Positions 1 through 18,008 of a stretch of DNA of 32,000 bases are shown piece by piece; within the stretch, counting starts at the first letter, position 1, and each line of letters begins with the position of its first letter. The position numbers and the translations under genes are program-made. The DNA comes from an uncultured Alphaproteobacteria bacterium. GTDB taxonomy: Bacteria > Pseudomonadota > Alphaproteobacteria > Rs-D84. Location of the stretch: positions 120,001-152,000 of the forward strand of contig OZ007020.1 of the NCBI GenBank assembly GCA_963931495.1, read 5' to 3'. The notes beneath the pieces were generated by a model. It did no database searches. It worked only from the letters and a program-made list of their open reading frames with translations, and was not told the DNA's origin.

Positions 1-621
1 CATTGTCGCATCAGACGCATCATCAGACGGCAAACGCCATAAATACAACGTGTTGTCCGTGTTAACAGATGTCGTTTCAATAATCCCCCCAGATGACGAT
101 ATACCCAAATCAATCGCATCAGCATGCCACGACCCAAATGTTCCATATGCACGTGTGCCGTCCAAAAATCCCATATTATCCCCACCCAGTGATACAATTT
201 CACGCGTGCGCATTGGACTGATTTCATCCGACGAAAAAACAATAACACCCTGTAAAGTTGCCCGTCCATTGGAATCATTGGATTTCAATACCCGTAATTG
301 ATACATATCACCTGCGTCGGTTAAATCAGCCGACACGCCATATGGAACCAGTTCAGAAATATTTACACGGGTTATATTACGCCCAACCGCCGACAATAAA
401 TTTTGACGATGATCCATTATATAGCGTTCCAGCGCATCTTGGATATCAGACATCTGGCGTGTTATTGCGATGTTTTCAGCACGCTGGGTAACGGTTTGTT
501 GATATTGAAATATAAACGGCATTATGATTGCCGCCAACGCAATACTCATCAACAATTCAACCAACATGCTGCCATGCTGGGATAATTTTTCGTGGTTAAA
601 AGGTATATGTATTCTGTTCAT
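1..621 (-). CDS. Type IV pilin-like (PilV / minor-pilin-like) protein; 5' end complete, 3' end runs off the window (at least 207 aa)
   Basis: Not in the supplied ORF track because there is no stop in the window. Hand translation of the minus strand from ATG 621-619 is uninterrupted down to position 1: MNRIHIPFNHEKLSQHG|SMLVELLMSIALAAIIMPFIFQYQQTVTQRAENIA...AYGTFGSWHADAIDLG...LYLWRLPSDDASDATM. The N-terminus is prepilin-type: Gly, Glu at +5, then about 20 hydrophobic residues. The start overlaps the stop of the upstream gene (ATGA, 618-621). Confidence 0.6.
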   Translation of the reverse strand, partial: MNRIHIPFNHEKLSQHGSMLVELLMSIALAAIIMPFIFQYQQTVTQRAENIAITRQMSDIQDALERYIMDHRQNLLSAVGRNITRVNISELVPYGVSADLTDAGDMYQLRVLKSNDSNGRATLQGVIVFSSDEISPMRTREIVSLGGDNMGFLDGTRAYGTFGSWHADAIDLGISSSGGIIETTSVNTDNTLYLWRLPSDDASDATM

Positions 622-1823
622 TGCACTAAATCCATTGGCATTGCACTGCGCCAATCATCAGACATTATTACCGAAAATTCATTTGCCACCGGTAATGCCG
701 GCACAGACGCACGACGCAGGTGTAATTCTGTGATACGTGGCGGGTTTAATGATGGAAATGTCCACGATCCAATTCGCAATGGTGCCGTCGTTGACATCAA
801 CAATTCGCCAGAAATTGTTAATCCAAAATTATCATAAAATATGATTTCTTCGGTTGATATAAATGATGTCTTGACCGTATGTGCAGATATACCTGTAAAT
901 GCACTGATTGTACGCGAAGAATCAGATTTTAATTCAAAATTATTTGCCACGTTTACAGAATTTGCCACCGTTGCCCGATCTGTTATTATCCGACCATTAG
1001 TTGAAAATCCATCGCCATTTAACTTGTTTGCATATATATTACGAAATCCAGACATATCACCTGTGACGCGCAATTTACCAAATGCTGTATTTTGTGCATC
1101 CAAACTGGCCCCAGATGAAAAGTACAGTGTATCGGCCGACAAACTAGCTGTTTCAATAAATGGCACAGATGCATTTTTTATCTTTCCAGAATCTGCAACA
1201 ACACCGCCAACATTGTAAGCACGATTTTTATTCATATTCAAATCACGAAACATTGTGTTCAGTTGTTCTTCGCTGTTTTCCGTACGATGCAGATATTTTG
1301 TTTTATCTTCGCCGGTGATATCGCGCGAAATTTTATATATTAAGTCCCCTGGACGAAAATCTGGGGCCGATACCGCCCATGCACCACCATATGCAATTCC
1401 GTCAGAACCCACAACCGCGGCATCAGAACCAATATGACGCGCAACCTGATTTGTACGCAAACTTGATTGATTCAAATCAAACGACAAATACACATCTGTG
1501 ACTGTTGCGCCATTTAATGAATATTTATCAATAAATCCTGCGACTGGGACATCGGATATTGAATCCAATTCTTCATCAGATAATTTTATCTGGGCAACAT
1601 CAGGCCAAGTATTTTGATTTAATCGGACAAAATTCAAAACACTGTCGCGCAAACCTATAATCTTGTTGGCCGCCGCAATATCACGCAACGTGTTATTTGT
1701 ATCGGCAATCTGGCCATACAAGAACGGCGCCGCCATCGCAACAATCGCCATGGCCAGTAATACTTCGGTCATACTGGCACCACGTTGTGAATTCGCAAAA
1801 ATACGCACCCTAGAAGCAGTCAC
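618..1823 (-). CDS. Large type IV pilin-like protein (PilV / tip-adhesin-like), 401 aa
   Basis: The N-terminus MTASRVRIFANSQRG|ASMTEVLLAMAIVAMAAPFLYGQI has a leader ending in Gly, Glu at +5 and a hydrophobic alpha1-N helix. The start is GTG at 1823, with an alternative GTG at 1808. It shares AYGG.W and YLHR...NTMFRDLNM motifs with the downstream paralogue. It overlaps the upstream gene by 14 nt. Confidence 0.65.
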   Translation of the reverse strand: MTASRVRIFANSQRGASMTEVLLAMAIVAMAAPFLYGQIADTNNTLRDIAAANKIIGLRDSVLNFVRLNQNTWPDVAQIKLSDEELDSISDVPVAGFIDKYSLNGATVTDVYLSFDLNQSSLRTNQVARHIGSDAAVVGSDGIAYGGAWAVSAPDFRPGDLIYKISRDITGEDKTKYLHRTENSEEQLNTMFRDLNMNKNRAYNVGGVVADSGKIKNASVPFIETASLSADTLYFSSGASLDAQNTAFGKLRVTGDMSGFRNIYANKLNGDGFSTNGRIITDRATVANSVNVANNFELKSDSSRTISAFTGISAHTVKTSFISTEEIIFYDNFGLTISGELLMSTTAPLRIGSWTFPSLNPPRITELHLRRASVPALPVANEFSVIMSDDWRSAMPMDLVQ

Positions 1824-3165
1824 TGCGCCCGTCCATTAAACACTGTTTGATATTTATACGTTGTTCCAATCTGTGCCAAAAGACATATTGGCATATTATG
1901 TATTGTGACAACGACATTTGATTATAGTTACCGTCCAGTTCACTGATTATCGCGCGGCAATCCGTTGTCTTTGAACTGTCCGCAGATGGATTATCAATAA
2001 CCTTTATCGCGCCATTATTTAATCCGTTCAATAAAATATCTGGTAATACAGATGTTCCCGCCGGCCGAATATCAATAACCACCGCCCCAGATTCGCCCTG
2101 GTTCAATGCATCCGATGTTTGATCGCGCATCGTTATGTTTGATGCCGCAATGTATCCGGTATCTATGCCACTGTTTGTAATATATTCTAAATCATCTGGG
2201 TCAATATAGACGTCTTGGCCGCGCGATGTATCAATATACGAACTGACATCCAATCTTTCTACGCTGAAATTAATATTTTCACTTAAAACATCACCATTTA
2301 CGTTCCAATCCGGCGGCCCATAAAAACTGGTGCGACCCGCCGACATTGAAAAATCATATACAGACGCAACATTTGATGTGAATGCACCCGTATCACCAAA
2401 CATGGATACCGTACGGGCATCAACACGCCCAACCAACAGCGTCCCACGCGTTAACGACAATGCTGCTTCGCCCAGGCTGTTTTGAAACACAGCATTATTG
2501 GCAATCATAACATCAATGTTACTGCGGGTGTTGCGACCGCTTTCCGTGCCGAACAGCGACAATGTTCCAAACTGGCCCGACGAAAATTCACCACGCGCCG
2601 CAAAAACATCACCACCATTGTTAAACGAAAAACCACCCATGTCTAAATCTGTCAAAAACGCACTGTTGTCCAAATTTGTTTCATTACGGCGAACAATGTC
2701 TGAAAAAGAATCATCCAATGCCAATCCGACAATAATATCATCACCAGATACAGATGCATAAAAACCAATCCTGCGCGCTAATTCCGCCAATTGAACCCCA
2801 GACAAATTTCCACCCGATAAACGCAAATATGCATTAACCAATGTTGCCGACTTGTTTATAACCAATGAAATATCTTGGTCCAATGCGGTACGTGCAACAA
2901 ACCCCAGGGGTAATCCATATGGTTCCAACAAATCAGAAAAATCATTCCCAGATACAACCGTCACATTATATGGCAAATCGGCCGCATTTTCGCGAATAAA
3001 TATACGCGCCGCAGTTTGCGCAACATCAACCTTTTGCGTTGCAGAAAACATCTGGGCATCCATATCACGCGCGGCCAAACGCTGGGCAAAAAAGGGGATA
3101 AAAGAAAATATCAACGTCAGTGCCAATAACGCTTGTAATAAAAAATTACCACTTTGTCTGTGCAC
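1810..3165 (-). CDS. Large pilin-like protein with Gln instead of Glu at +5, 451 aa; first gene of the operon
   Basis: A GTG start at 3165 lies 7 nt after AGGGGGG (complement of 3173-3179). The N-terminus is MHRQSG|NFLLQALLALTLIFSFIPFF. An internal block VRRNETNLDNSAFLTDLDMGGFSFNNGG matches the motif in the two downstream paralogues. The C-terminal ~50 aa contain 4 Cys. Confidence 0.6.
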   Translation of the reverse strand: MHRQSGNFLLQALLALTLIFSFIPFFAQRLAARDMDAQMFSATQKVDVAQTAARIFIRENAADLPYNVTVVSGNDFSDLLEPYGLPLGFVARTALDQDISLVINKSATLVNAYLRLSGGNLSGVQLAELARRIGFYASVSGDDIIVGLALDDSFSDIVRRNETNLDNSAFLTDLDMGGFSFNNGGDVFAARGEFSSGQFGTLSLFGTESGRNTRSNIDVMIANNAVFQNSLGEAALSLTRGTLLVGRVDARTVSMFGDTGAFTSNVASVYDFSMSAGRTSFYGPPDWNVNGDVLSENINFSVERLDVSSYIDTSRGQDVYIDPDDLEYITNSGIDTGYIAASNITMRDQTSDALNQGESGAVVIDIRPAGTSVLPDILLNGLNNGAIKVIDNPSADSSKTTDCRAIISELDGNYNQMSLSQYIICQYVFWHRLEQRINIKQCLMDGRSDCF

Positions 3166-3189
3166 AGAAAAGCCCCCCTGTTGTAAAAA

Positions 3190-3241
3190 ATGTTAGCAAC
3201 TGAAAAAAAATATTGCAATCAGTTTTAAGATGCTCTATTAT
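3190..3241. promoter_or_regulatory. Putative back-to-back sigma70-type promoters sharing one palindromic -35 hexamer
   Basis: TTGCAA at 3213-3218 is its own reverse complement. On the plus strand, a 17-nt spacer leads to TATTAT (3236-3241), upstream of the DUF4167 gene. On the minus strand, a 17-nt spacer leads to TAACAT (complement of 3190-3195), upstream of the pilin-like operon. This is motif reading only. Confidence 0.3.
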
Positions 3242-3310
3242 TCCCATGTTGAATAAAAAACAGTAACGGCAAAGGCCATAAAAATAATTTCCTGTTAAAA
3301 AAGAAAGAAA

Positions 3311-3631
3311 ATGCAAAATAAAAAAAACCAATCATCTGTTGGAATGATGATTCAACGTTGTCACAAATGGCGGCAAAAAAGAAAACAATACATGGACCAG
3401 GCACGTCAAACAACTGACGAAATTGAACGTGAACGCTTGATGCAGGCGGCCGAACACTATGGCCGTATTGTAAATGCGGAACAGGGAAAAATTGATTCCA
3501 CCCGTGATCCAAAGGACAAGGGGACAACCGCTGATGAAATTGCCGAAATCACACCGGATTCATCTGAAAATTCCGATGCCGGCGATGATGATGACGCGGG
3601 CTTTCCCGACTTTATAACAAACGGGAAGTAA
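3311..3631 (+). CDS. DUF4167-like small protein with an acidic C-terminal tail
   Basis: The core KQYMDQARQTTDEIERERLMQAAEHYGRIVNAEQ resembles the alphaproteobacterial DUF4167 consensus (..Y..LARDA...GDR..AEN..QHAEHY.RI), recalled from memory. The C-terminus is DSSENSDAGDDDDAGFPDF. The start could instead be the internal Met pair (MMIQR). Confidence 0.55.
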   Translation: MQNKKNQSSVGMMIQRCHKWRQKRKQYMDQARQTTDEIERERLMQAAEHYGRIVNAEQGKIDSTRDPKDKGTTADEIAEITPDSSENSDAGDDDDAGFPDFITNGK

Positions 3632-3705
3632 GTTGTATTGAACTGTACTTTATCCCTTGAATTTTTGCTGTGTTTTGCTATTCTTTTGCAAAAGGAAGTT
3701 TCAGC

Positions 3706-5248: not shown

Positions 5249-5707
5249 ATGAAACAGGAATACGGGGCATCTTTGATTGAAATTGTCGGCGTATTGGCAA
5301 TCGCTGGTTTAATGAGTGGCGCCGCCATCGGTATGTATAATGTTATTCGCAATAACCAGGCGCGCAAAATCGCATCTGTGGAAATGCAAGAAATCGCACG
5401 CGATGCCAAACTGTTGATGGAAATGCGCGGTGACTATACGGGGATATCTGTGGATTATTTGGTTGAACAAGGTGCGCTGGCCAATAATCATGCGCCAATT
5501 GGGGGCGACAATTGGTCCGTGACCGCAACCAGTGATGGCCAGGCATTTTCAATTAACCTGACTGATTTAAGCCAAGGCGAATGCCAATATTTTGCCACCA
5601 CACCACCACAATGGGCCGCGCGCGTCATCGTGAACGGTTTTGAAACAGACATTTCGGATAACTGTTTTACAACAAATACGAATCAATTATCGTTTGTGGT
5701 TGAATAA
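5249..5707 (+). CDS. Type IV pilin (major-pilin-sized, 152 aa)
   Basis: MKQEYG|ASLIEIVGVLAIAGLMSGAAIGMYNVI has a short leader, Gly at -1 and Glu at +5. A C-terminal Cys pair (GECQYF...26 aa...DNCF) is typical of the pilin D-region. ATG 5249 follows AGGA and lies 19 nt after the dnaX stop. The track start at 5177 overlaps dnaX and I reject it. Confidence 0.8.
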   Translation: MKQEYGASLIEIVGVLAIAGLMSGAAIGMYNVIRNNQARKIASVEMQEIARDAKLLMEMRGDYTGISVDYLVEQGALANNHAPIGGDNWSVTATSDGQAFSINLTDLSQGECQYFATTPPQWAARVIVNGFETDISDNCFTTNTNQLSFVVE

Positions 5708-11247: not shown

Positions 11248-13470
11248 ATGGTTGAAAAGTTCAAGATTTTATCCGCCGGTGGCAAATCCAAGGGGCTGAA
11301 TATATTCAAATCCAGCGCATATAAAGAAACTATGCGCAACCCGATGGCGTCACTGTTCTGGTCAATGCGGTGGGCCATTGGGATATGGATTATTTGTGCG
11401 ATTGCGTTTGGTGCATCTTTTATCATTGAACATATATGGCGATATGGGTGGTCACCGGCAACAGCACATTGGATATCACTGTATCTGCACAATATGTTAA
11501 CCAGTTGCGGTTTGTCGGTTATTGCGGAAATACCGTCGTGGTTTGTTCGTACGTTGATGCATACTGATTTTGCGTGCATGACGCCACTGTTACCGATAAT
11601 TGCATACTTTTTTATGGCGGACAGCACTTTGATTAAAGAATTCAACCCGTACAGCAGCGATAAACTTGATGACAAATCATCAAACAAAGCGACCAAGGAA
11701 GATATTGAAAAAATGGGACTGTTAAAGGGATTCATGATGGTTTTGGGGTATTTCAAGAAAAAGCCATTAATGATGAACGAATGTCTGTCTGCGTTGTGTT
11801 TGGCGCCCCCGGGAACCGGTAAAACCTACGGCGTTGTATTACCAACAATTTTTGAATGCAATAATGTTTCAATGATTGTCAACGACCCAAAGCCAGAATT
11901 GTATCAAAATTCATCTGCATACCGTTCAACCATTGGACCGGTGTTTATTATGAACTGGGCGGGGCAAGATGACCCAGAACGTGGAATATACTATCCATCG
12001 TGGAATCCGCTGTCACCGGAACACGTACCATTCAATTCAGAACAACGCGACTTGTATGTTGATTCAATTTGCAATGTTTTAATCGCAGATAAAACGTCAT
12101 CATCAGCAGATCCACACTGGACCATTTCTGGGCGCGCGGCGTTGTCTGGACTGATTCAGTTTATGTTGTCCAAGGTGGAACGTGCACGGGCCGATGATTA
12201 TTTCTATGCCCGCATCACATCCGGAACGTTTGATTCAGATGATGCCGCCGTGTTGGGGGATTATTATCTGTCTATGATGAACAACCCGAATGCATATGCC
12301 GCACATGCGTTGTTACAACGCGGCGAATTAAATGCGATGAATTATGTCCATGTCGGAACATGGGATAATATTCCCGACGCATGGCGTGGACACGAAGCAT
12401 CACTGTCCATGATTTTGGATTGGATTAACGCCAGTCAAATTACAATGGCCCAACAAATGGAAGAACGACGCCGTGCCGGGGATCAAATGGTGATGATGGC
12501 CGATCCTATGCATGATTTATTTATGAATGCGGTGGATGAAGCACGCCAATATTCATACGCACATCGTGCAATATTAGAATTAACACAACTGGCAAATACG
12601 CCGGACAAAGAACGCGGTTCTATTATTTCCACAGTAATGGCCGGATTATCAATATTCCGTAACGCGGCGGTACGTAATCGCACCAGTCATTCAGACTTTC
12701 ACTTTGCGGATTTACGCGGACTGCGCGATCCGCGCGATGGCAAAGTAAAGCCAGTAACCGTATATCTGTCAATAAACATGGTTGATGCCGAAGCATTAAA
12801 TCCAATTACCGGGATATTCATTGAATTAATGACGGATTTCTTGTTATCAAATCCACCCGAAGGAATGCATGACGGCGAACGACTGGGGCCGTATCCAGTG
12901 CTGTTTGTACTGGACGAAATGCCGAAAATGCAAAAATTACAGGCCGTGATTCAGGGACCGGACCTGGGGCGGGGACAAAAAGTATCTTATCTGATTATTG
13001 GCCAGGATATTCACCAGATTCAGGAAAAATATGGTGCAGATGCCGCCGCAACAATTATATCTACGACAGCGGCAAAAATCGTACTGCGTCAAAATGATCC
13101 TGATACAGCAACACGGTTTTCTGAAATGATGGGGCACAAAATCAAAATAAAAACTGTCAAAGGGCCCGATGGTAAAGATAAAGAAGAAAAATCCGAAGAA
13201 TTACTATACACACCAATGGACATAATGAAACTGGACGATAAAAAACAACTGGTTATATTCCAGGGATGGTATCATCGCCCGATTGAGGCAGACAAACAAA
13301 TGGCATTTAATGACCCACGATTGGCTGGATACATGGCCATGGGCGCATGCAGCCCGTTGCCAGAATTTTTAATCCCATCACATCATGCTGCATTGGGATA
13401 TTCAGGCAAACCACGTATGTACATTCCACAAACCAAAGAAATCAAAGACTTAGAACCCGTGGCAAAATAA
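11248..13470 (+). CDS. Type IV secretion coupling protein (TraG/VirD4 family ATPase), 740 aa
   Basis: The N-terminal region has hydrophobic helices (WAIGIWIICAIAFGASFII; TPLLPIIAYFFM). The Walker A context is LCLAPPGTGKTYGVVLPTIFECNNVSMIVNDPKPELY. The Walker B is VLFVLDEMPKM, followed by GRGQKVSYLIIGQDIHQI. The start is uncertain (11248, or the internal Met at MRNPMASL). Confidence 0.85.
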   Translation: MVEKFKILSAGGKSKGLNIFKSSAYKETMRNPMASLFWSMRWAIGIWIICAIAFGASFIIEHIWRYGWSPATAHWISLYLHNMLTSCGLSVIAEIPSWFVRTLMHTDFACMTPLLPIIAYFFMADSTLIKEFNPYSSDKLDDKSSNKATKEDIEKMGLLKGFMMVLGYFKKKPLMMNECLSALCLAPPGTGKTYGVVLPTIFECNNVSMIVNDPKPELYQNSSAYRSTIGPVFIMNWAGQDDPERGIYYPSWNPLSPEHVPFNSEQRDLYVDSICNVLIADKTSSSADPHWTISGRAALSGLIQFMLSKVERARADDYFYARITSGTFDSDDAAVLGDYYLSMMNNPNAYAAHALLQRGELNAMNYVHVGTWDNIPDAWRGHEASLSMILDWINASQITMAQQMEERRRAGDQMVMMADPMHDLFMNAVDEARQYSYAHRAILELTQLANTPDKERGSIISTVMAGLSIFRNAAVRNRTSHSDFHFADLRGLRDPRDGKVKPVTVYLSINMVDAEALNPITGIFIELMTDFLLSNPPEGMHDGERLGPYPVLFVLDEMPKMQKLQAVIQGPDLGRGQKVSYLIIGQDIHQIQEKYGADAAATIISTTAAKIVLRQNDPDTATRFSEMMGHKIKIKTVKGPDGKDKEEKSEELLYTPMDIMKLDDKKQLVIFQGWYHRPIEADKQMAFNDPRLAGYMAMGACSPLPEFLIPSHHAALGYSGKPRMYIPQTKEIKDLEPVAK

Positions 13471-13472
13471 AC

Positions 13473-14513
13473 TTAAAAACTTAATCTTAATCCGGCGGCG
13501 ATAAATGGTGTTTCTGTGGTCACACCCCCCGATATCCACAGGTCAATATTTTCGTTATATTTATACCGAAATGACGCAATTGCCGTATGATCCATATAAT
13601 CATCCACATCGCGATTCCATATGCCTGTATCAGAAAATATGTATGTTAATGACACACTGTAATTCAAAATATCATAACTGACCCCGGCACCGGCCGCCAA
13701 GCCATCTGATACGCGCCCAATCGGATTTTCATCATATATCAAACGCCCGGTTAATCCGAACATCCAACTGTTATATTGCACATTAATACCACCAGATACC
13801 TGGGCACGCCAATCCGCAGTTACGCGTGGGGTGTATGCATCCGTACGATATTCATTGGGATGCGACATAAACGATGCGCCAAATGCATATGCGGCCTTTA
13901 TCTTGCCAGACGGCTGGCGAATCTTTATTCCGATATCTGTGGCATAATCATAGTGATGCGCCAATCCTGATACAGATAATCCGTATTGCGCGCCATTAAT
14001 TGAAACACTGGCAATATTTATGCGTGGCGCACTGCGCCCGGTGGTAAGTGTTGTATCCGATATAACCGGACCATCTGGGGTAATTTGTTTATAAAACAGC
14101 GGCTTATCATTAACGCGTAACCCACCGACATCTGGTAATCCAACCCCCAGTTTGCGCGCAATTGAATCTGTGAATCCGATTTCCAGACGGCCAAAATCAT
14201 TATTTTGCCAATATCCAAATACTTCGCGAAAGAATTTATCTTCGTCAATCGCCGCGGCGTCAATTGCATAAACAGCACCAATTGAATTTACATCGGCAAA
14301 CTTGTACGCCGCCGCACCACGCACCCGCCAATCACCAACAAAATCAGGGCGTTCAAAATCGGGTTCTAAAATACCAATTGTGCCGTATCCCGTCAGCCCC
14401 AATGATACATCGTCTGATTCATATTTTAATTCAACACCGTGGGCCGGCAACGTCAACAATCCAATCACACATAAAAATTGTGTCCCCAAAACAGGACGCA
14501 TAAAACGTTTCAT
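13473..14513 (-). CDS. Outer-membrane beta-barrel porin-like protein
   Basis: The signal peptide is MKRFMRPVLGTQFLCVIGLLTLPAHG|VE. The sequence alternates amphipathic Gly/Tyr/aromatic-rich beta-strand patterns. The C-terminus is the OMP signature ...GLRLSF. Confidence 0.7.
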   Translation of the reverse strand: MKRFMRPVLGTQFLCVIGLLTLPAHGVELKYESDDVSLGLTGYGTIGILEPDFERPDFVGDWRVRGAAAYKFADVNSIGAVYAIDAAAIDEDKFFREVFGYWQNNDFGRLEIGFTDSIARKLGVGLPDVGGLRVNDKPLFYKQITPDGPVISDTTLTTGRSAPRINIASVSINGAQYGLSVSGLAHHYDYATDIGIKIRQPSGKIKAAYAFGASFMSHPNEYRTDAYTPRVTADWRAQVSGGINVQYNSWMFGLTGRLIYDENPIGRVSDGLAAGAGVSYDILNYSVSLTYIFSDTGIWNRDVDDYMDHTAIASFRYKYNENIDLWISGGVTTETPFIAAGLRLSF

Positions 14514-16939: not shown

Positions 16940-16971
16940 GGGACGCTGGCAATTGGCGTCCCTGTTTTTTT
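16940..16971 (+). terminator. Rho-independent terminator-like hairpin downstream of bamB and upstream of the tail-fibre-like gene
   Basis: The stem is GGGACGC (16940-46) paired with GCGTCCC (16956-62) around a 9-nt loop. TG and then T7 (16965-71) follow. Confidence 0.6.
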
Positions 16972-16997
16972 ATTCAACATTTAATCCAAAGGAACAT

Positions 16998-18008
16998 ATG
17001 ATGCACAAAGTAACATATATCGCCGATGGCGATACCAGTGAATTTATTTTTAATTTCCCATTCTTTCAACCAGATGATGTTAAAGCATCTGTTAATTTTG
17101 ATATTCAACCAAATACAACGTATACAATAATACCAAACGAACCACGCAGCGACGGCAAATACATCGGTGGAAAAATTGTTTTCAAATCTGTCCCAATTCA
17201 TGGCGCAGAAATAACAATATGGCGAAAAATAGAACTGGGGCGAACAATTGACTATCAACCAACACTGCCAATCAGTACAGATTCTTTGAACGCTGATTTT
17301 AATTTCTTGTTGGAATATTTGCGTGATATATACGAACTGGATAACAATGTTGCCAATATTGAAAACGGATTGCAATTTCTGGATTCTATTCAATCACAGA
17401 TTGATGCACTGGGCGATTTCTCGCAACTGGCAACCAAGGCAGAATTGGCACCAGTGGCATTCAGCAACGATTTTACGGACCTGGAAAATCCGCCATCAAT
17501 CCCCAATCCAGATGATTTTGCACCGGTTAACCACACACATAATGAATATGCAACGCATTCGGAAACAGATGAACTGAGTGAACGCATAGATACATTGGAA
17601 TCTGGCACGGGGTCATTACCACAAAACATGGATTATGTTGAATACTGGGACAGCGCAGACACAACAGACCACAGTCATGCAAAGCCCGGCGTGGCGACCC
17701 CAACCGACCACGGTTGGTATCGCGTATATAAATCTGGGTGGTGCGAACAAGGCGGACAAGTCACAGACACGCAATCTGCAACACAACATTTTACAAATGT
17801 CAATCTGCCGATATACATGGTTAATATTGCATATTATGCAACCGCCACAGACACCCGTGCGTCCGGCACAACAAACTATGCAATGCGTATTGTTGAACGT
17901 ACGGTAACAAAGATAAAAGTTTCTGGTACAATCCATACCGACAAGACATATTACAACAATTCTTGTCTGTGGTATGTTTGTGGAAATTCATTTATAATTC
18001 CAGAATAA
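16998..18008 (+). CDS. Phage tail-fibre-like protein (T7-type N-terminal domain, gp53-like C-terminal domain)
   Basis: The N-terminus KVTYIADGDTSEFIFNFPFF...EITIWRKIELGRTIDYQPTLPISTDSLNADFNFLLEYLRDI parallels T7 gp17 (VLTYQLDGSNRDFNIPFEY...[34 protein letters not shown]). A mid-region NHTHNEY motif is present. The C-terminus GWYRVYKSGWCEQGG...VNLPIYMVNIAYYATAT...CLWYVCG resembles the common tail-fibre tip domain (G.....SGL..QWG...V.FP.AF.......T...W.A.G). I prefer ATG 16998 after AAAGGA; the track start 16953 lies inside the terminator hairpin. Confidence 0.65.
   Translation: MMHKVTYIADGDTSEFIFNFPFFQPDDVKASVNFDIQPNTTYTIIPNEPRSDGKYIGGKIVFKSVPIHGAEITIWRKIELGRTIDYQPTLPISTDSLNADFNFLLEYLRDIYELDNNVANIENGLQFLDSIQSQIDALGDFSQLATKAELAPVAFSNDFTDLENPPSIPNPDDFAPVNHTHNEYATHSETDELSERIDTLESGTGSLPQNMDYVEYWDSADTTDHSHAKPGVATPTDHGWYRVYKSGWCEQGGQVTDTQSATQHFTNVNLPIYMVNIAYYATATDTRASGTTNYAMRIVERTVTKIKVSGTIHTDKTYYNNSCLWYVCGNSFIIPE

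Follow-up and report, generated by a model that had tools for sequence, protein, structure and literature searches.

The window, that is, the whole 32-kb stretch of DNA analyzed, begins within a minus-strand operon containing three consecutive genes, here called P1, P2, and P3, that encode large prepilin-type proteins resembling PilV. The alphaproteobacterial chromosome of the preliminary description is that of Candidatus Enterousia (order Rs-D84), a gut bacterium with a genome of less than 1 Mb. The trio shares its operon with housekeeping genes encoding a Zn-ribbon/DUF3426 protein, a 155-aa protein, and RluD. The features of the window are as follows, a slash in an N-terminal sequence standing before position +1.

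3173..3179, minus strand: Shine-Dalgarno-like AGGGGGG, 7 nt 5' of the P1 GTG (3165-3163), read from the sequence
1810..3165, minus strand: P1, 451 aa, GTG start, PilV-like prepilin-type (open reading frame)
1810..1823, minus strand: 14-nt overlap of the P1 stop and P2 start (open reading frame coordinates)
618..1823, minus strand: P2, 401 aa, PilV-like prepilin-type (open reading frame)
618..621, minus strand: ATGA overlap of the P2 stop and P3 start (open reading frame coordinates and translation)
1..621, minus strand: P3, 207 codons without a stop, leaving the window at its start (translation)
5249..5707, plus strand: gene for a small prepilin-type protein (152 aa, MKQEYG/ASLIEIVGVLAIAG...) bearing a Cys pair at its C-terminal end
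11248-13470: VirD4/TraG-type gene

The last two genes were overlooked in the preliminary description.

The three open reading frames had been given exactly in that description, the Shine-Dalgarno sequence and both overlaps are real, and extension of the contig to lower coordinates has completed P3, which measures 439 aa (L001:11203-12522), with its N-terminal 207 aa inside the window. The junctions are conserved across 79 species loci: P1 and P2 overlap in 79/79, by 14 nt in 64 of them, and P2 and P3 overlap by 4 nt in 37, their junction lying between -4 and +4 nt in 72, with extremes of a 17-nt overlap and a 19-nt gap. The 14-nt overlap of P1 and P2 implies translational coupling. P1, P2, and P3 are jointly transcribed and translationally coupled, which suggests that the three proteins are made in similar amounts.

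Each protein has a prepilin-type N-terminus, and the pattern noticed earlier, including Gln, Glu, and Glu at +5, proves near-invariant over about 80 species. The leaders measure 6 aa in P1 (MHRQSG/NFLLQ), 15 aa in P2 (..NSQRG/ASMTE), and 17 aa in P3 (..LSQHG/SMLVE). Gly occupies -1 in 79/80 sequences of P1 and in 81/81 of both P2 and P3; residue +5 is Gln in P1 (79/80) and Glu in P2 (80/81) and P3 (81/81); and all three share Pro at +18. The Pfam N_methyl model matches P2 below threshold in hmmscan (E = 0.016; 15.2 bits versus a curated cutoff of 21.2).

The paralogy of the three proteins is real though remote. Pairwise identities are 23-25% (BLASTP, E = 4e-6 to 2e-4), and hhalign relates P2 to P3 at E = 6e-12, P1 to P2 at 1.5e-4, and P1 to P3 at 6e-3. 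Only the first 190-240 residues of each protein share this similarity; none is detectable among the C-terminal halves, already described as different. Within the genus, conservation is uniform along each protein, the C-terminal halves being conserved like the N-terminal ones, and across deep lineages alignment persists in the N-domains only. The 4-Cys module reported for P1 is borne out by the invariance of C403, C425, C442, and C450, with a C-terminal module at residues ~380-445. AF2 models place an N-terminal helix of ~40-55 residues ahead of an alpha/beta domain (pLDDT 75-89), with helix 5-59 and strands in P1 (pLDDT 77-89 at residues 5-150) and helix 18-56 and a beta-sheet in P2 (75-88 at residues 18-170). 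Except for the 380-445 module of P1 (~81), the C-terminal halves have pLDDT values below 50 in the models, and Foldseek, proposed earlier as a check, found no significant match to the models in PDB or BFVD. Each protein opens with a class III (prepilin) signal; the PilV-like pilin domain that comes next spans ~190-240 residues and is closed by the motif L-x-R...N-x-M...(D/N)-(M/L)-G-x-(N/H)-x-I-x-N, and the remaining C-terminal half is beta-rich and lineage-specific.

Aligned by hhalign with a profile of seven PilV proteins, P3 scores E = 8e-14, P2 5.5e-12, and P1 1.8e-7, with probabilities of 93.8-98.1% and collinearity over 189-217 columns; without the membrane helix the values are 7e-11, 7e-8, and 2e-5, and reversed-sequence controls give 0.2-0.5. 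A P3 profile matches 314 clusters in a library of 1.84e9 protein representatives, and 14 of its 53 tail hits are Pfam Shufflon_N proteins (best E = 3.8e-74), genuine members of that family being recovered at E = 1e-11 to 1e-8. Reciprocally, a PilV HMM matches P3 representatives at 1e-9 to 5e-14, and R64 PilV alone matches a P3 orthologue in phmmer (E = 7.6e-4). The L.R...N.M..D(L/M)..G..I.N block named in the preliminary description is indeed present in R64 PilV, with its key positions unchanged across the seven PilV proteins. The kinship with PilV/Shufflon_N proposed in the preliminary description thus stands in profile-profile comparison but has two bounds: the homology ends at about PilV residue 240, the tail-fiber-like second constant part being absent (the constant region of TP114 PilV spans 345 aa; PMC9045228), and hmmscan with Pfam Shufflon_N gave no hit to P1, P2, or P3. 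More generally, the curated models of Pfam and NCBIfam have no significant match to the trio proteins, N_methyl matching below its cutoff only. We therefore regard the trio, on sequence evidence, as remote PilV relatives and not as family members by curated model. By hhalign, P1, P2, and P3 resemble PilV more than one another, suggesting an ancient split without recent diversification; the reading favored below takes them as anciently diverged paralogues of a PilV-type minor pilin.

Surveying related genomes, we found the ordered trio in 80/80 species loci; counting the window and L001 as well, all 82 sequences searched have it, and its flanks are conserved. Three distant lineages (L175, L178, and L180) likewise carry ordered trios, each among different housekeeping genes. 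The L175 genes have the same order and one-to-one orthology, the first matching P1 at 1.7e-11, the second P2 at 7e-23, and the third P3 at 5e-37; the L180 genes are giant (1236, 1083, and 1188 aa), and in L181 the first two giant genes are visible before the contig ends. Each paralogue, judged from these alignments, represents a separate ancient line of orthologues. No shufflon, sfx repeats, or Rci recombinase was found at these loci, and the lack of sfx repeats and Rci argues against DNA inversion.

As first reported, the 32-kb window lacks a pilus ATPase and platform protein as well as a secretin and a prepilin peptidase. In two congeners, L047 and L048, a pilO-pilP-ATPase-platform cluster in R64 gene order lies at most 8 kb from the trio, with matches to PAP_PilO (E = 8e-8) and pilP_fam (E = 4e-7), a T2SSE ATPase with 30% identity to R64 PilQ and 165 metagenome relatives, and a T2SSF platform protein. 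Neither an A24 prepilin peptidase nor a secretin was found by HMM, phmmer, and motif searches of the window and of the Enterousia-lineage and metagenome loci, covering ~10 kb on each side of the trio or ATPase and excluding the seven plasmid PilV reference loci. Beside the trios of the three distant lineages, pilus genes never occur. The 152-aa protein encoded at 5249-5707 has a sub-threshold N_methyl match (E = 0.03) and carries Gly at -1 and Glu at +5 in 76/76 species, and its gene is syntenic with the trio in 77/82 sequences searched; we propose the protein as a candidate for the major pilin in the trio's presumed filament.

If the resemblance to PilV came only from hydrophobic helices and composition, the trio would be three unrelated hypothetical membrane proteins, a view with which the lack of significant Pfam/NCBIfam hits, the empty Foldseek result, and identities of only 23-25% agree. 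The sequence comparisons already contradict it, making it highly improbable: the signal survives helix deletion and is not reproduced by the reversed controls, the alignments are collinear over 190-217 columns with a common invariant motif, and Shufflon_N proteins are retrieved at library-wide significance. It is also unlikely, if not to the same degree, that the trio proteins are uncleaved membrane anchors or a short periplasmic pseudopilus with an envelope role (secretion or fiberless cell-cell contact) rather than pilus subunits. A plain anchor would hardly account for Gly -1, Glu +5, and Pro +18 being nearly invariant, the proteins are homologous to pilus-tip adhesins and not to type II secretion pseudopilins, and the lineage's assembly genes belong with those of R64-type type IVb pili (PAP_PilO, pilP_fam) and not with GspC/L/M. 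Such a role would nevertheless suit the operon shared with housekeeping genes, the lack of a peptidase, secretin, or major-pilin operon beside the trio in any lineage, and a published survey of Rs-D84 genomes in which type IV pili are unreported. It could also draw on weak NCBIfam matches to GspI, XpsI, and GspK, but these reach 13-18 bits against cutoffs of 44-150.

Under a hard-wired adhesin repertoire, the possibility raised in the preliminary description, P1, P2, and P3 would each cap their own pili and bind their own receptor, three fixed genes replacing shufflon variation. This agrees with a PilV-like N-domain common to three proteins with unrelated C-terminal halves, with the receptor specificity set by the C-terminal part of PilV in R64 and TP114 (PMC9045228; PMC5297154), with the absence of a shufflon and Rci, and with N-domains alone being alignable between deep lineages, which points to C-terminal halves changing over long times. 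However, genes of a repertoire would be expected to be gained, lost, and varied in copy number, yet there are exactly three in the same order in 80/80 species and in three distant lineages; within the genus, conservation is no lower in the C-terminal halves than in the N-terminal ones, the split of the paralogues is ancient, translational coupling means co-expression and not choice, and P1 differs systematically at +5. We consider a repertoire a poor fit and rather doubtful. The occurrence of the same ordered trio in ~80 species and in other lineages suggests instead that it is probably a fixed three-part pilus tip and that its members are not adhesins exchanged for one another. We favor, with a probability of roughly 60%, a fixed heteromeric tip/initiator-adhesin complex of a type IVb-like pilus.

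In such a fixed tip, a prepilin peptidase would cut P1, P2, and P3 after Gly -1, and their N-terminal helices and pilin domains would join them into a heteromeric cap/initiation complex, presumably with 1:1:1 stoichiometry. P1 may be outermost, having Gln and not Glu at +5 in Enterousia; Korotkov and Hol reportedly described GspK without Glu5 in 2008. The argument from a cap lacking Glu5 does not hold everywhere, since the first paralogue carries Glu at +5 in L175 and L180, and Glu5 is absent from some of the seven genuine PilV proteins too. Beneath the cap, a type IVb-like machine (PilO-PilP-ATPase-platform), whose genes would lie elsewhere in the genome, would build the filament, perhaps from the 152-aa pilin. 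The three differing C-terminal halves, displayed jointly at the tip, would form the binding surface. Candidatus Enterousia has a partner-dependent lifestyle (PMC12306168), and the three-part tip probably serves to attach this bacterium to partner cells, possibly in cooperation with the bacterium's own type IV secretion system.

Among known systems, PilV is the tip adhesin/minor pilin of the thin type IVb pili of IncI1 and IncI2 plasmids (R64, whose thin pilus is conjugative, and TP114; Shufflon_N, PF04917). Like it, the trio proteins have ~400-475 aa, a prepilin-type leader, a hydrophobic N-terminus, and a homologous pilin domain; they have a counterpart of the PilV motif L-Y-R...N-x-M-x-T-x-(I/L)-D-M-G-x-N-x-L-N-N at equal distance from the N-terminus, followed in both by a divergent region thought to hold binding specificity; and genes similar to R64 pilO-pilP-pilQ-pilR occur in the trio's lineage. 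In contrast to PilV, one gene with switchable ends in R64 and TP114, the trio consists of three separate conserved genes without sfx repeats, Rci, or a Pfam hit, homologous only to about residue 240, and it is chromosomal among housekeeping genes, outside any pil/tra operon or conjugative element. PilV2, a PilV-family minor pilin of the type IVb pilus of the Pseudomonas aeruginosa PAPI-1 island, is encoded by a single fixed, chromosomally integrated gene in a ten-gene pil cluster with no rci listed and no prepilin peptidase of its own, and it binds partner LPS glycan (PMC5297154). The trio likewise comprises fixed chromosomal PilV-related genes without a prepilin peptidase at the locus, but it is far remoter in sequence, triplicated, and apart from assembly genes, whereas PilV2 lies in the pil cluster of a mobile island.

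The preliminary description also likened the trio to CofB (enterotoxigenic Escherichia coli CFA/III) and TcpB (Vibrio cholerae TCP), type IVb initiator minor pilins that form trimers at the tip, capping and priming the filament (PMC7248040). Neither sequence nor fold comparison could relate the trio to CofB, TcpB, or GspK; as large proteins (430-520 aa) with a pilin domain and extra beta-rich domains, CofB and TcpB may still serve as a functional analogy for a three-subunit cap, although they are homotrimers of one gene product and the trio is three distinct paralogues. Heteromeric tips are represented by GspK-GspI-GspJ, the tip complex of type II secretion (PMC7248040) with GspK as its oversized capping subunit, and by the tip complexes of PilV/W/X-type core minor pilins in type IVa pili. 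These belong to other families and are much smaller (100-330 aa) than the trio proteins, but like the trio they are different pilin-like proteins encoded adjacently.

The three genes near the start of the window (P1, P2 and P3, together the trio) are laid out as the preliminary description had read them, in tandem overlapping frames with a GTG start at 3165 and a Shine-Dalgarno sequence before it. The third frame, which runs out of the window, was completed by an exact-protein look-up that led to a 356-kb metagenomic contig (L001) and gave a full P3 of 439 aa. Within the window, the P1/P2 overlap spans 14 nt and the P2/P3 overlap is ATGA.

1810-3165, minus strand: P1, 451 aa, GTG start
3179-3173, minus strand: AGGGGGG, 7 nt before the P1 GTG
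618-1823, minus strand: P2, 401 aa
1-621, minus strand: P3, read by translation, open frame running out of the window

All three proteins follow the class III signal rule, with a short, basic leader that closes on Gly(-1) ahead of about 20 hydrophobic residues, and the prepilin-type signatures are near-invariant over about 80 species, which supports the prepilin nature that had been claimed for the trio.

Prepilin signatures of the trio (species counted)
P1: Gly -1 in 79/80, Gln +5 in 79/80, Pro +18 in 79/80, leader 6-8 aa
P2: Gly -1 in 81/81, Glu +5 in 80/81, Pro +18 in 81/81, leader 13-18 aa
P3: Gly -1 in 81/81, Glu +5 in 81/81, Pro +18 in 81/81, leader 13-19 aa

Tip subunits without Glu5 are known. 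Moreover, several annotated plasmid PilV proteins, those of Serratia, Edwardsiella and Salmonella IncFII (L010, L011 and L012), carry Ser or Leu rather than Glu at +5, so that loss of Glu5 is not unusual in this family. By curated models, P2 falls below cut-off for both N_methyl (PF07963; 15.2 bits vs 21.2, E 0.016) and TIGR02532 (13.6 vs 16.3), and P1 and P3 match neither; the P1, P2 and P3 families each have more than 700 homologues, all of them without annotation. AlphaFold2 models place a confident N-terminal helix before an alpha/beta domain in P2 (helix 18-56, pLDDT 75-88 up to residue 170) and in P1 (helix 5-59, pLDDT 77-89 up to residue 150). The middle and C-terminal regions of both models are unreliable, apart from a confident C-terminal module in P1 (residues 380-445) that holds four invariant Cys. 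Foldseek searches against PDB and BFVD returned nothing significant.

The N-terminal domains of the trio resemble the pilin domain of PilV. We compared family profiles with a profile built from seven plasmid PilV proteins (IncI1, IncI2, Serratia, Edwardsiella, Salmonella, Xanthomonas and Ralstonia; R64 PilV taken from NC_005014), and all three matched, with or without the membrane helix, while reversed-sequence controls gave E 0.2-0.5.

Profile-profile comparison (hhalign) of the trio with PilV
P3: E 8e-14, 98.1%, P3 14-238 with PilV 4-241; without membrane helix E 7e-11
P2: E 5.5e-12, 97.5%, P2 12-214 with PilV 4-233; without membrane helix E 7e-8
P1: E 1.8e-7, 93.8%, P1 4-195 with PilV 5-235; without membrane helix E 2e-5

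Ten residues are invariant in the seven PilV proteins (L196, R198, P205, N208, M210, T212, D215, M216, N219 and N223), forming the motif L-x-R...P..N-x-M-x-T..D-M..N...N at PilV ~195-225, and this motif is found in the trio at the same place and spacing, the motifs aligning with one another. It reads YLHR-x8-LNxMxRDLNM..N..YNVG in P2 (invariant L178, R180, N189, M191 and L195), LYLWRVPS....DATMLSGLNLGGHxIxN in P3 (invariant L194, R196, P198, M207, L211 and N212) and VRRNExNLDNSAFLTDLDMGGFSFNNGG in P1 (invariant R160, N161, L174 and G177). Independently of hhalign, a HMMER profile of the P3 family retrieved 314 clusters at E <=1e-3 among 1.84 billion representatives. Genuine Pfam Shufflon_N proteins (best E 3.8e-74) make up 14 of the 53 long tail matches of this profile, and seven strong PilV-HMM matches (1e-111 to 2e-35) were retrieved by it at library-wide E 1e-11 to 2e-8; reciprocally, the PilV HMM matches P3 representatives at 5e-14 to 1e-9. 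Given the agreement of the hhalign, helix-deleted, reversed-control and HMMER results, homology of the P1-P3 N-terminal domain to the PilV pilin domain is established. The kinship proposed in the preliminary description therefore stands as homology and as a shared motif, but not as a match to the curated Shufflon_N model (PF04917), which in hmmscan found nothing in P1, P2 or the 207-aa P3 fragment (E <=1) or in full P3 (E <=0.01); by that model, family membership is not established.

The same searches bear on other possible identities. Scores for XpsI, GspI and GspK were far below the NCBIfam cut-offs (17.7 vs 150, 13.6 vs 44 and 13.2 vs 130), ComGE appeared only below threshold in family scans of the trio, and a PsiA match in the Pfam/NCBIfam scans was spurious. 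The likeness to CofB and TcpB that had been suggested found no counterpart in sequence or fold, as neither protein was an entry in the PDB profile search or the Foldseek PDB searches. In a PDB sequence search with the P3 and PilV profiles, only pilin N-termini matched (E ~0.01), showing that the PilV family has no solved structure.

In TP114, PilV has a constant region of 345 aa, and shuffling is confined to the final 69-113 aa (PMC9045228). Compared with this protein, the trio lacks the second, tail-fibre-like part of the constant region, the alignments stopping at PilV 233-241. Signs of a shufflon were also absent: window 1-3700 holds only chance-level short repeats where sfx-like repeats were sought, and the search for an rci-type recombinase proposed earlier found no Rci homologue in 82 sequences (80 species loci, the window and L001). 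The trio lies outside any type IVb pil operon (pilL to pilV) in the window, amid housekeeping genes. It is well supported that P1-P3 belong to the PilV-type minor pilins, in a type IVb system like that of R64 but lacking a shufflon.

Within the trio, pairwise identity is 23-25%, and profile-profile comparison relates P2 to P3 (E 6e-12 over 226 columns) and P1 to P2 (E 1.5e-4) and P3 (E 6e-3). This likeness is limited to the N-terminal 190-240 residues; set against one another or against the PilV C-terminus, the C-terminal halves gave background values only and have no detectable kinship, so that the all-against-all comparison bears out a shared N-terminal region with unlike C-terminal halves. 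P1, P2 and P3 occur in this order with the same neighbours in 80/80 species loci, as in the window and L001. P1 and P2 overlap in 79/79 species loci; between P2 and P3, 37/79 loci show a 4-nt overlap and 72/79 a spacing within -4 to +4 nt. Within the genus, conservation by column stays level from one end of each protein to the other, and the C-terminal halves equal the N-terminal ones in this respect.

Surveying relatives extended the same arrangement to distant lineages, where the trios sit amid quite different housekeeping flanks and the C-terminal halves differ completely.

L175 (GC 35%): 469-455-489 aa; first gene like P1 (1.7e-11), second like P2 (7e-23), third like P3 (5e-37), N-domains alone alignable
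L178 (GC 29.5%): 469-446-482 aa; Gln at +5 in the first protein, as in P1
L179 (GC 36%): 443 aa (P2-like) and 609 aa (P3-like), then the same Zn-ribbon gene as in L001
L180/L181 (GC 45.5%): 1236-1083-1188 aa; PilV HMM 1e-23 to 1e-28, all with Glu +5
L180:3551-14143: giant trio, flanked by housekeeping genes (sua5, corA, H+-PPase)
L181:5798-12770: first two giant genes, then the contig ends

About 30 more representatives of 900-1,240 aa carry the N-terminus of the giants (..QKGSMMVEALAMLGLITMVTPVLYKK). Since trios recur in such distant lineages, three differing PilV-like genes in a row are an old recurrent unit.

How three such proteins are used can be read in two ways. The preliminary description saw a hard-wired repertoire of alternative PilV-type adhesins, a reading that meets the unlike C-terminal halves on one side and, on the other, a set of features that require its revision. 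The data favour instead one obligatory heteromeric tip or initiation complex, because the number and order of the genes have been fixed over deep time, the genes are translationally coupled, their divergence is ancient, with each paralogue nearer to PilV than to its neighbours, the C-terminal halves are uniformly conserved within the genus, and P1 differs systematically at +5. For a tip complex there are precedents in the tip trimers of CofB and TcpB and in GspK-I-J (PMC7248040). With the trio as a heteromeric complex, the complete difference of C-terminal halves between deep lineages fits a binding surface adapting to host or partner over long timescales. Cleavage, tip location, stoichiometry and target of the three proteins are what we infer here.

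The window also encodes a candidate major pilin, a gene absent from the preliminary description.

5249-5707, plus strand: prepilin-type gene, 152 aa, beginning MKQEYG (leader) and ASLIEIVGVLAIAG..., with a C-terminal Cys pair, between dnaX and the OmpA-family lipoprotein gene

This gene is syntenic with the trio, and its product has Gly -1 and Glu +5 in 76/76 species. As had been noted, the window itself holds no pilus ATPase, platform protein, secretin or peptidase; what this seemed to imply needs revision, however, since two Enterousia species (L047:3-4596 and L048:3-2268) carry an assembly cluster 6-8 kb from the trio, past the OmpA lipoprotein and skp genes, in the gene order of R64 pilO-pilP-pilQ-pilR.

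L047/L048 cluster: PAP_PilO protein, 434 aa (PF06864, E 8e-8, above cut-off)
L047/L048 cluster: pilP_fam protein, 233 aa (TIGR03021, E 4e-7, just below cut-off)
L047/L048 cluster: T2SSE ATPase, 542 aa, 30% identity to R64 PilQ
L047/L048 cluster: T2SSF platform protein, 29% identity to R64 PilR

Metagenomes contain 165 relatives of this ATPase, and its conserved neighbours are limited to the PilP-like, platform and PilO-like proteins, a ~140-aa lipoprotein that often precedes such clusters, lpxC, lpxK and gyrB. The same cluster occurs at L117:7404-12662. Two records of MAG UMGS860, one with the trio (L092) and one with this cluster (L117), have the identical length of 125,164 bp, from which we judge that both probably lie on the same contig, ~90 kb apart. 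In the fetched loci (the window and other Enterousia-lineage and metagenome loci), covering ~10 kb to each side of the trio or the ATPase, neither an A24 peptidase nor a secretin was found; the search combined an A24 HMM built from four sequences, R64 Pil proteins as phmmer queries, the GxGD(V/I)K motif and clusters of the genes next to the ATPase.

Downstream of P3, L001 continues into further conserved genes.

L001, 20 nt 3' of P3 (within L001:12543-13520): Zn-ribbon and DUF3426 membrane protein, 169 aa
L001, 0-nt spacing after the Zn-ribbon gene (within L001:12543-13520): secreted protein, 155 aa, before rluD
L001, after the 155-aa gene: RluD-type pseudouridine synthase
L001, downstream of P3 (within L001:14581-19563): Cys-rich protein, 1,051 aa, signal peptide and C-terminal membrane segments, without Pfam match

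The 169-aa and 155-aa genes are kept in 81/82 sequences, the divergent locus L179 likewise has the Zn-ribbon gene 3' of its P3-like gene, and the two genes may share an operon or function with the trio. The 1,051-aa gene is kept in 70/82 sequences and adjoins, within the same interval, a variable gene for a 586-aa LRR_5 protein (20/82); both products are possible surface or effector proteins. On the other side of P1 and farther along the window lie four more genes outside the housekeeping set.

3311-3631, plus strand: 106-aa ORF divergent from P1, basic N-terminus and very acidic C-terminus (..SENSDAGDDDDAGFPDF..), without family match, kept in 80/82 sequences
11248-13470, plus strand: VirD4/TraG-type T4SS coupling protein, 740 aa (T4SS-DNA_transf, TrwB_AAD_bind, TraG-D_C), between rsmE and the porin-like gene, with no other T4SS genes beside it in the window
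13473-14513, minus strand: porin-like protein, 346 aa, signal peptide, alternating beta-strand pattern and C-terminal Phe, without Pfam match
16953-18008, plus strand: 351-aa ORF between bamB and der, coiled segment ...NIENGLQFLDSIQSQIDALGDFSQLATKAEL... and Thr/Tyr-rich C-terminus, without Pfam match

By its sequence, the 351-aa product resembles phage tail-fibre or receptor-binding proteins. The remaining window genes are housekeeping (dnaX, OmpA-family lipoprotein, skp, lpxD, fabZ, rsuA, rsmE, sigma factor, bamB, der, infB, nusA, lptFG, lptD, surA, rlmN and truB), and extending the contig beyond the far window end added only mutS, parAB and gidB. Promoter-like sequences number 14 (11.0 in shuffled sequence, sd 3.5), as expected, and terminator-like ones 8 (4.3, sd 2.1), a modest excess only; neither count is informative.

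P2 has relatives in 204 species-level genomes; those with names are Candidatus Enterousia, and the remainder are MAGs labelled "uncultured Alphaproteobacteria/Rickettsiales" from the guts of birds, ruminants and humans. Related pilus-ATPase loci are also present in JGI metagenomes with the prefixes JGI20166J26741 and Ga0123353, which we take to be termite-gut samples. One sequence carrying the far end of the window (L094, ena:ERZ21564551:s287.ctg000449c; 958,617 bp) has a "c" suffix in its name; it is probably a circular assembly and likely a complete Enterousia genome of ~0.96 Mb. Enterousia belongs to the order Rs-D84, and its MAGs in a published genome survey are 0.75-1.0 Mb, lack the TCA cycle, respiration and standard transporters, and have been proposed to come from obligate symbionts or parasites (PMC12306168). 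That survey mentions type IV pili for one other lineage but not for Rs-D84 (PMC12306168).

That the trio is retained in genomes of <1 Mb across ~80 species speaks for an essential part in the way of life of these hosts. PilV and PilV2 bind LPS of recipient cells (PMC9045228, PMC5297154), and by this analogy, together with the dependent lifestyle, the trio likely serves in attachment to partner cells. Going further, we tentatively propose, at a probability of about 35%, that the trio belongs to an unrecognised, widely conserved module in which it would form a heterotrimeric type IVb-like pilus cap, the partner-cell attachment organ of obligately dependent Rs-D84 gut bacteria with <1 Mb genomes, its three-gene plan being reused in other uncultured lineages with C-terminal domains of up to ~1,000 residues. 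The published survey left open how Rs-D84 bacteria keep hold of their partner cells, and the trio is a specific candidate that can be put to the test. The case also defines a three-gene module that recurs, and offers for uncultured dependent gut bacteria a candidate attachment device open to experiment.

Known PilV-type adhesins belong to conjugative plasmids and islands, where a single gene diversified by DNA inversion decides the mating partners of the donor. Here, in contrast, the core chromosome of hosts stripped of most metabolism carries the family as three large paralogues in fixed number and order, and the PilV superfamily now extends far past the Pfam model, through mostly unannotated clusters that include trios of 1,083-1,236 aa. 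The tips of type IVb pili are homotrimeric in CofB and TcpB, and the trio offers a natural test case of whether they can be built from three different subunits; if so, the heterotrimeric cap would be to three different proteins what the homotrimer of CofB/TcpB is to one.
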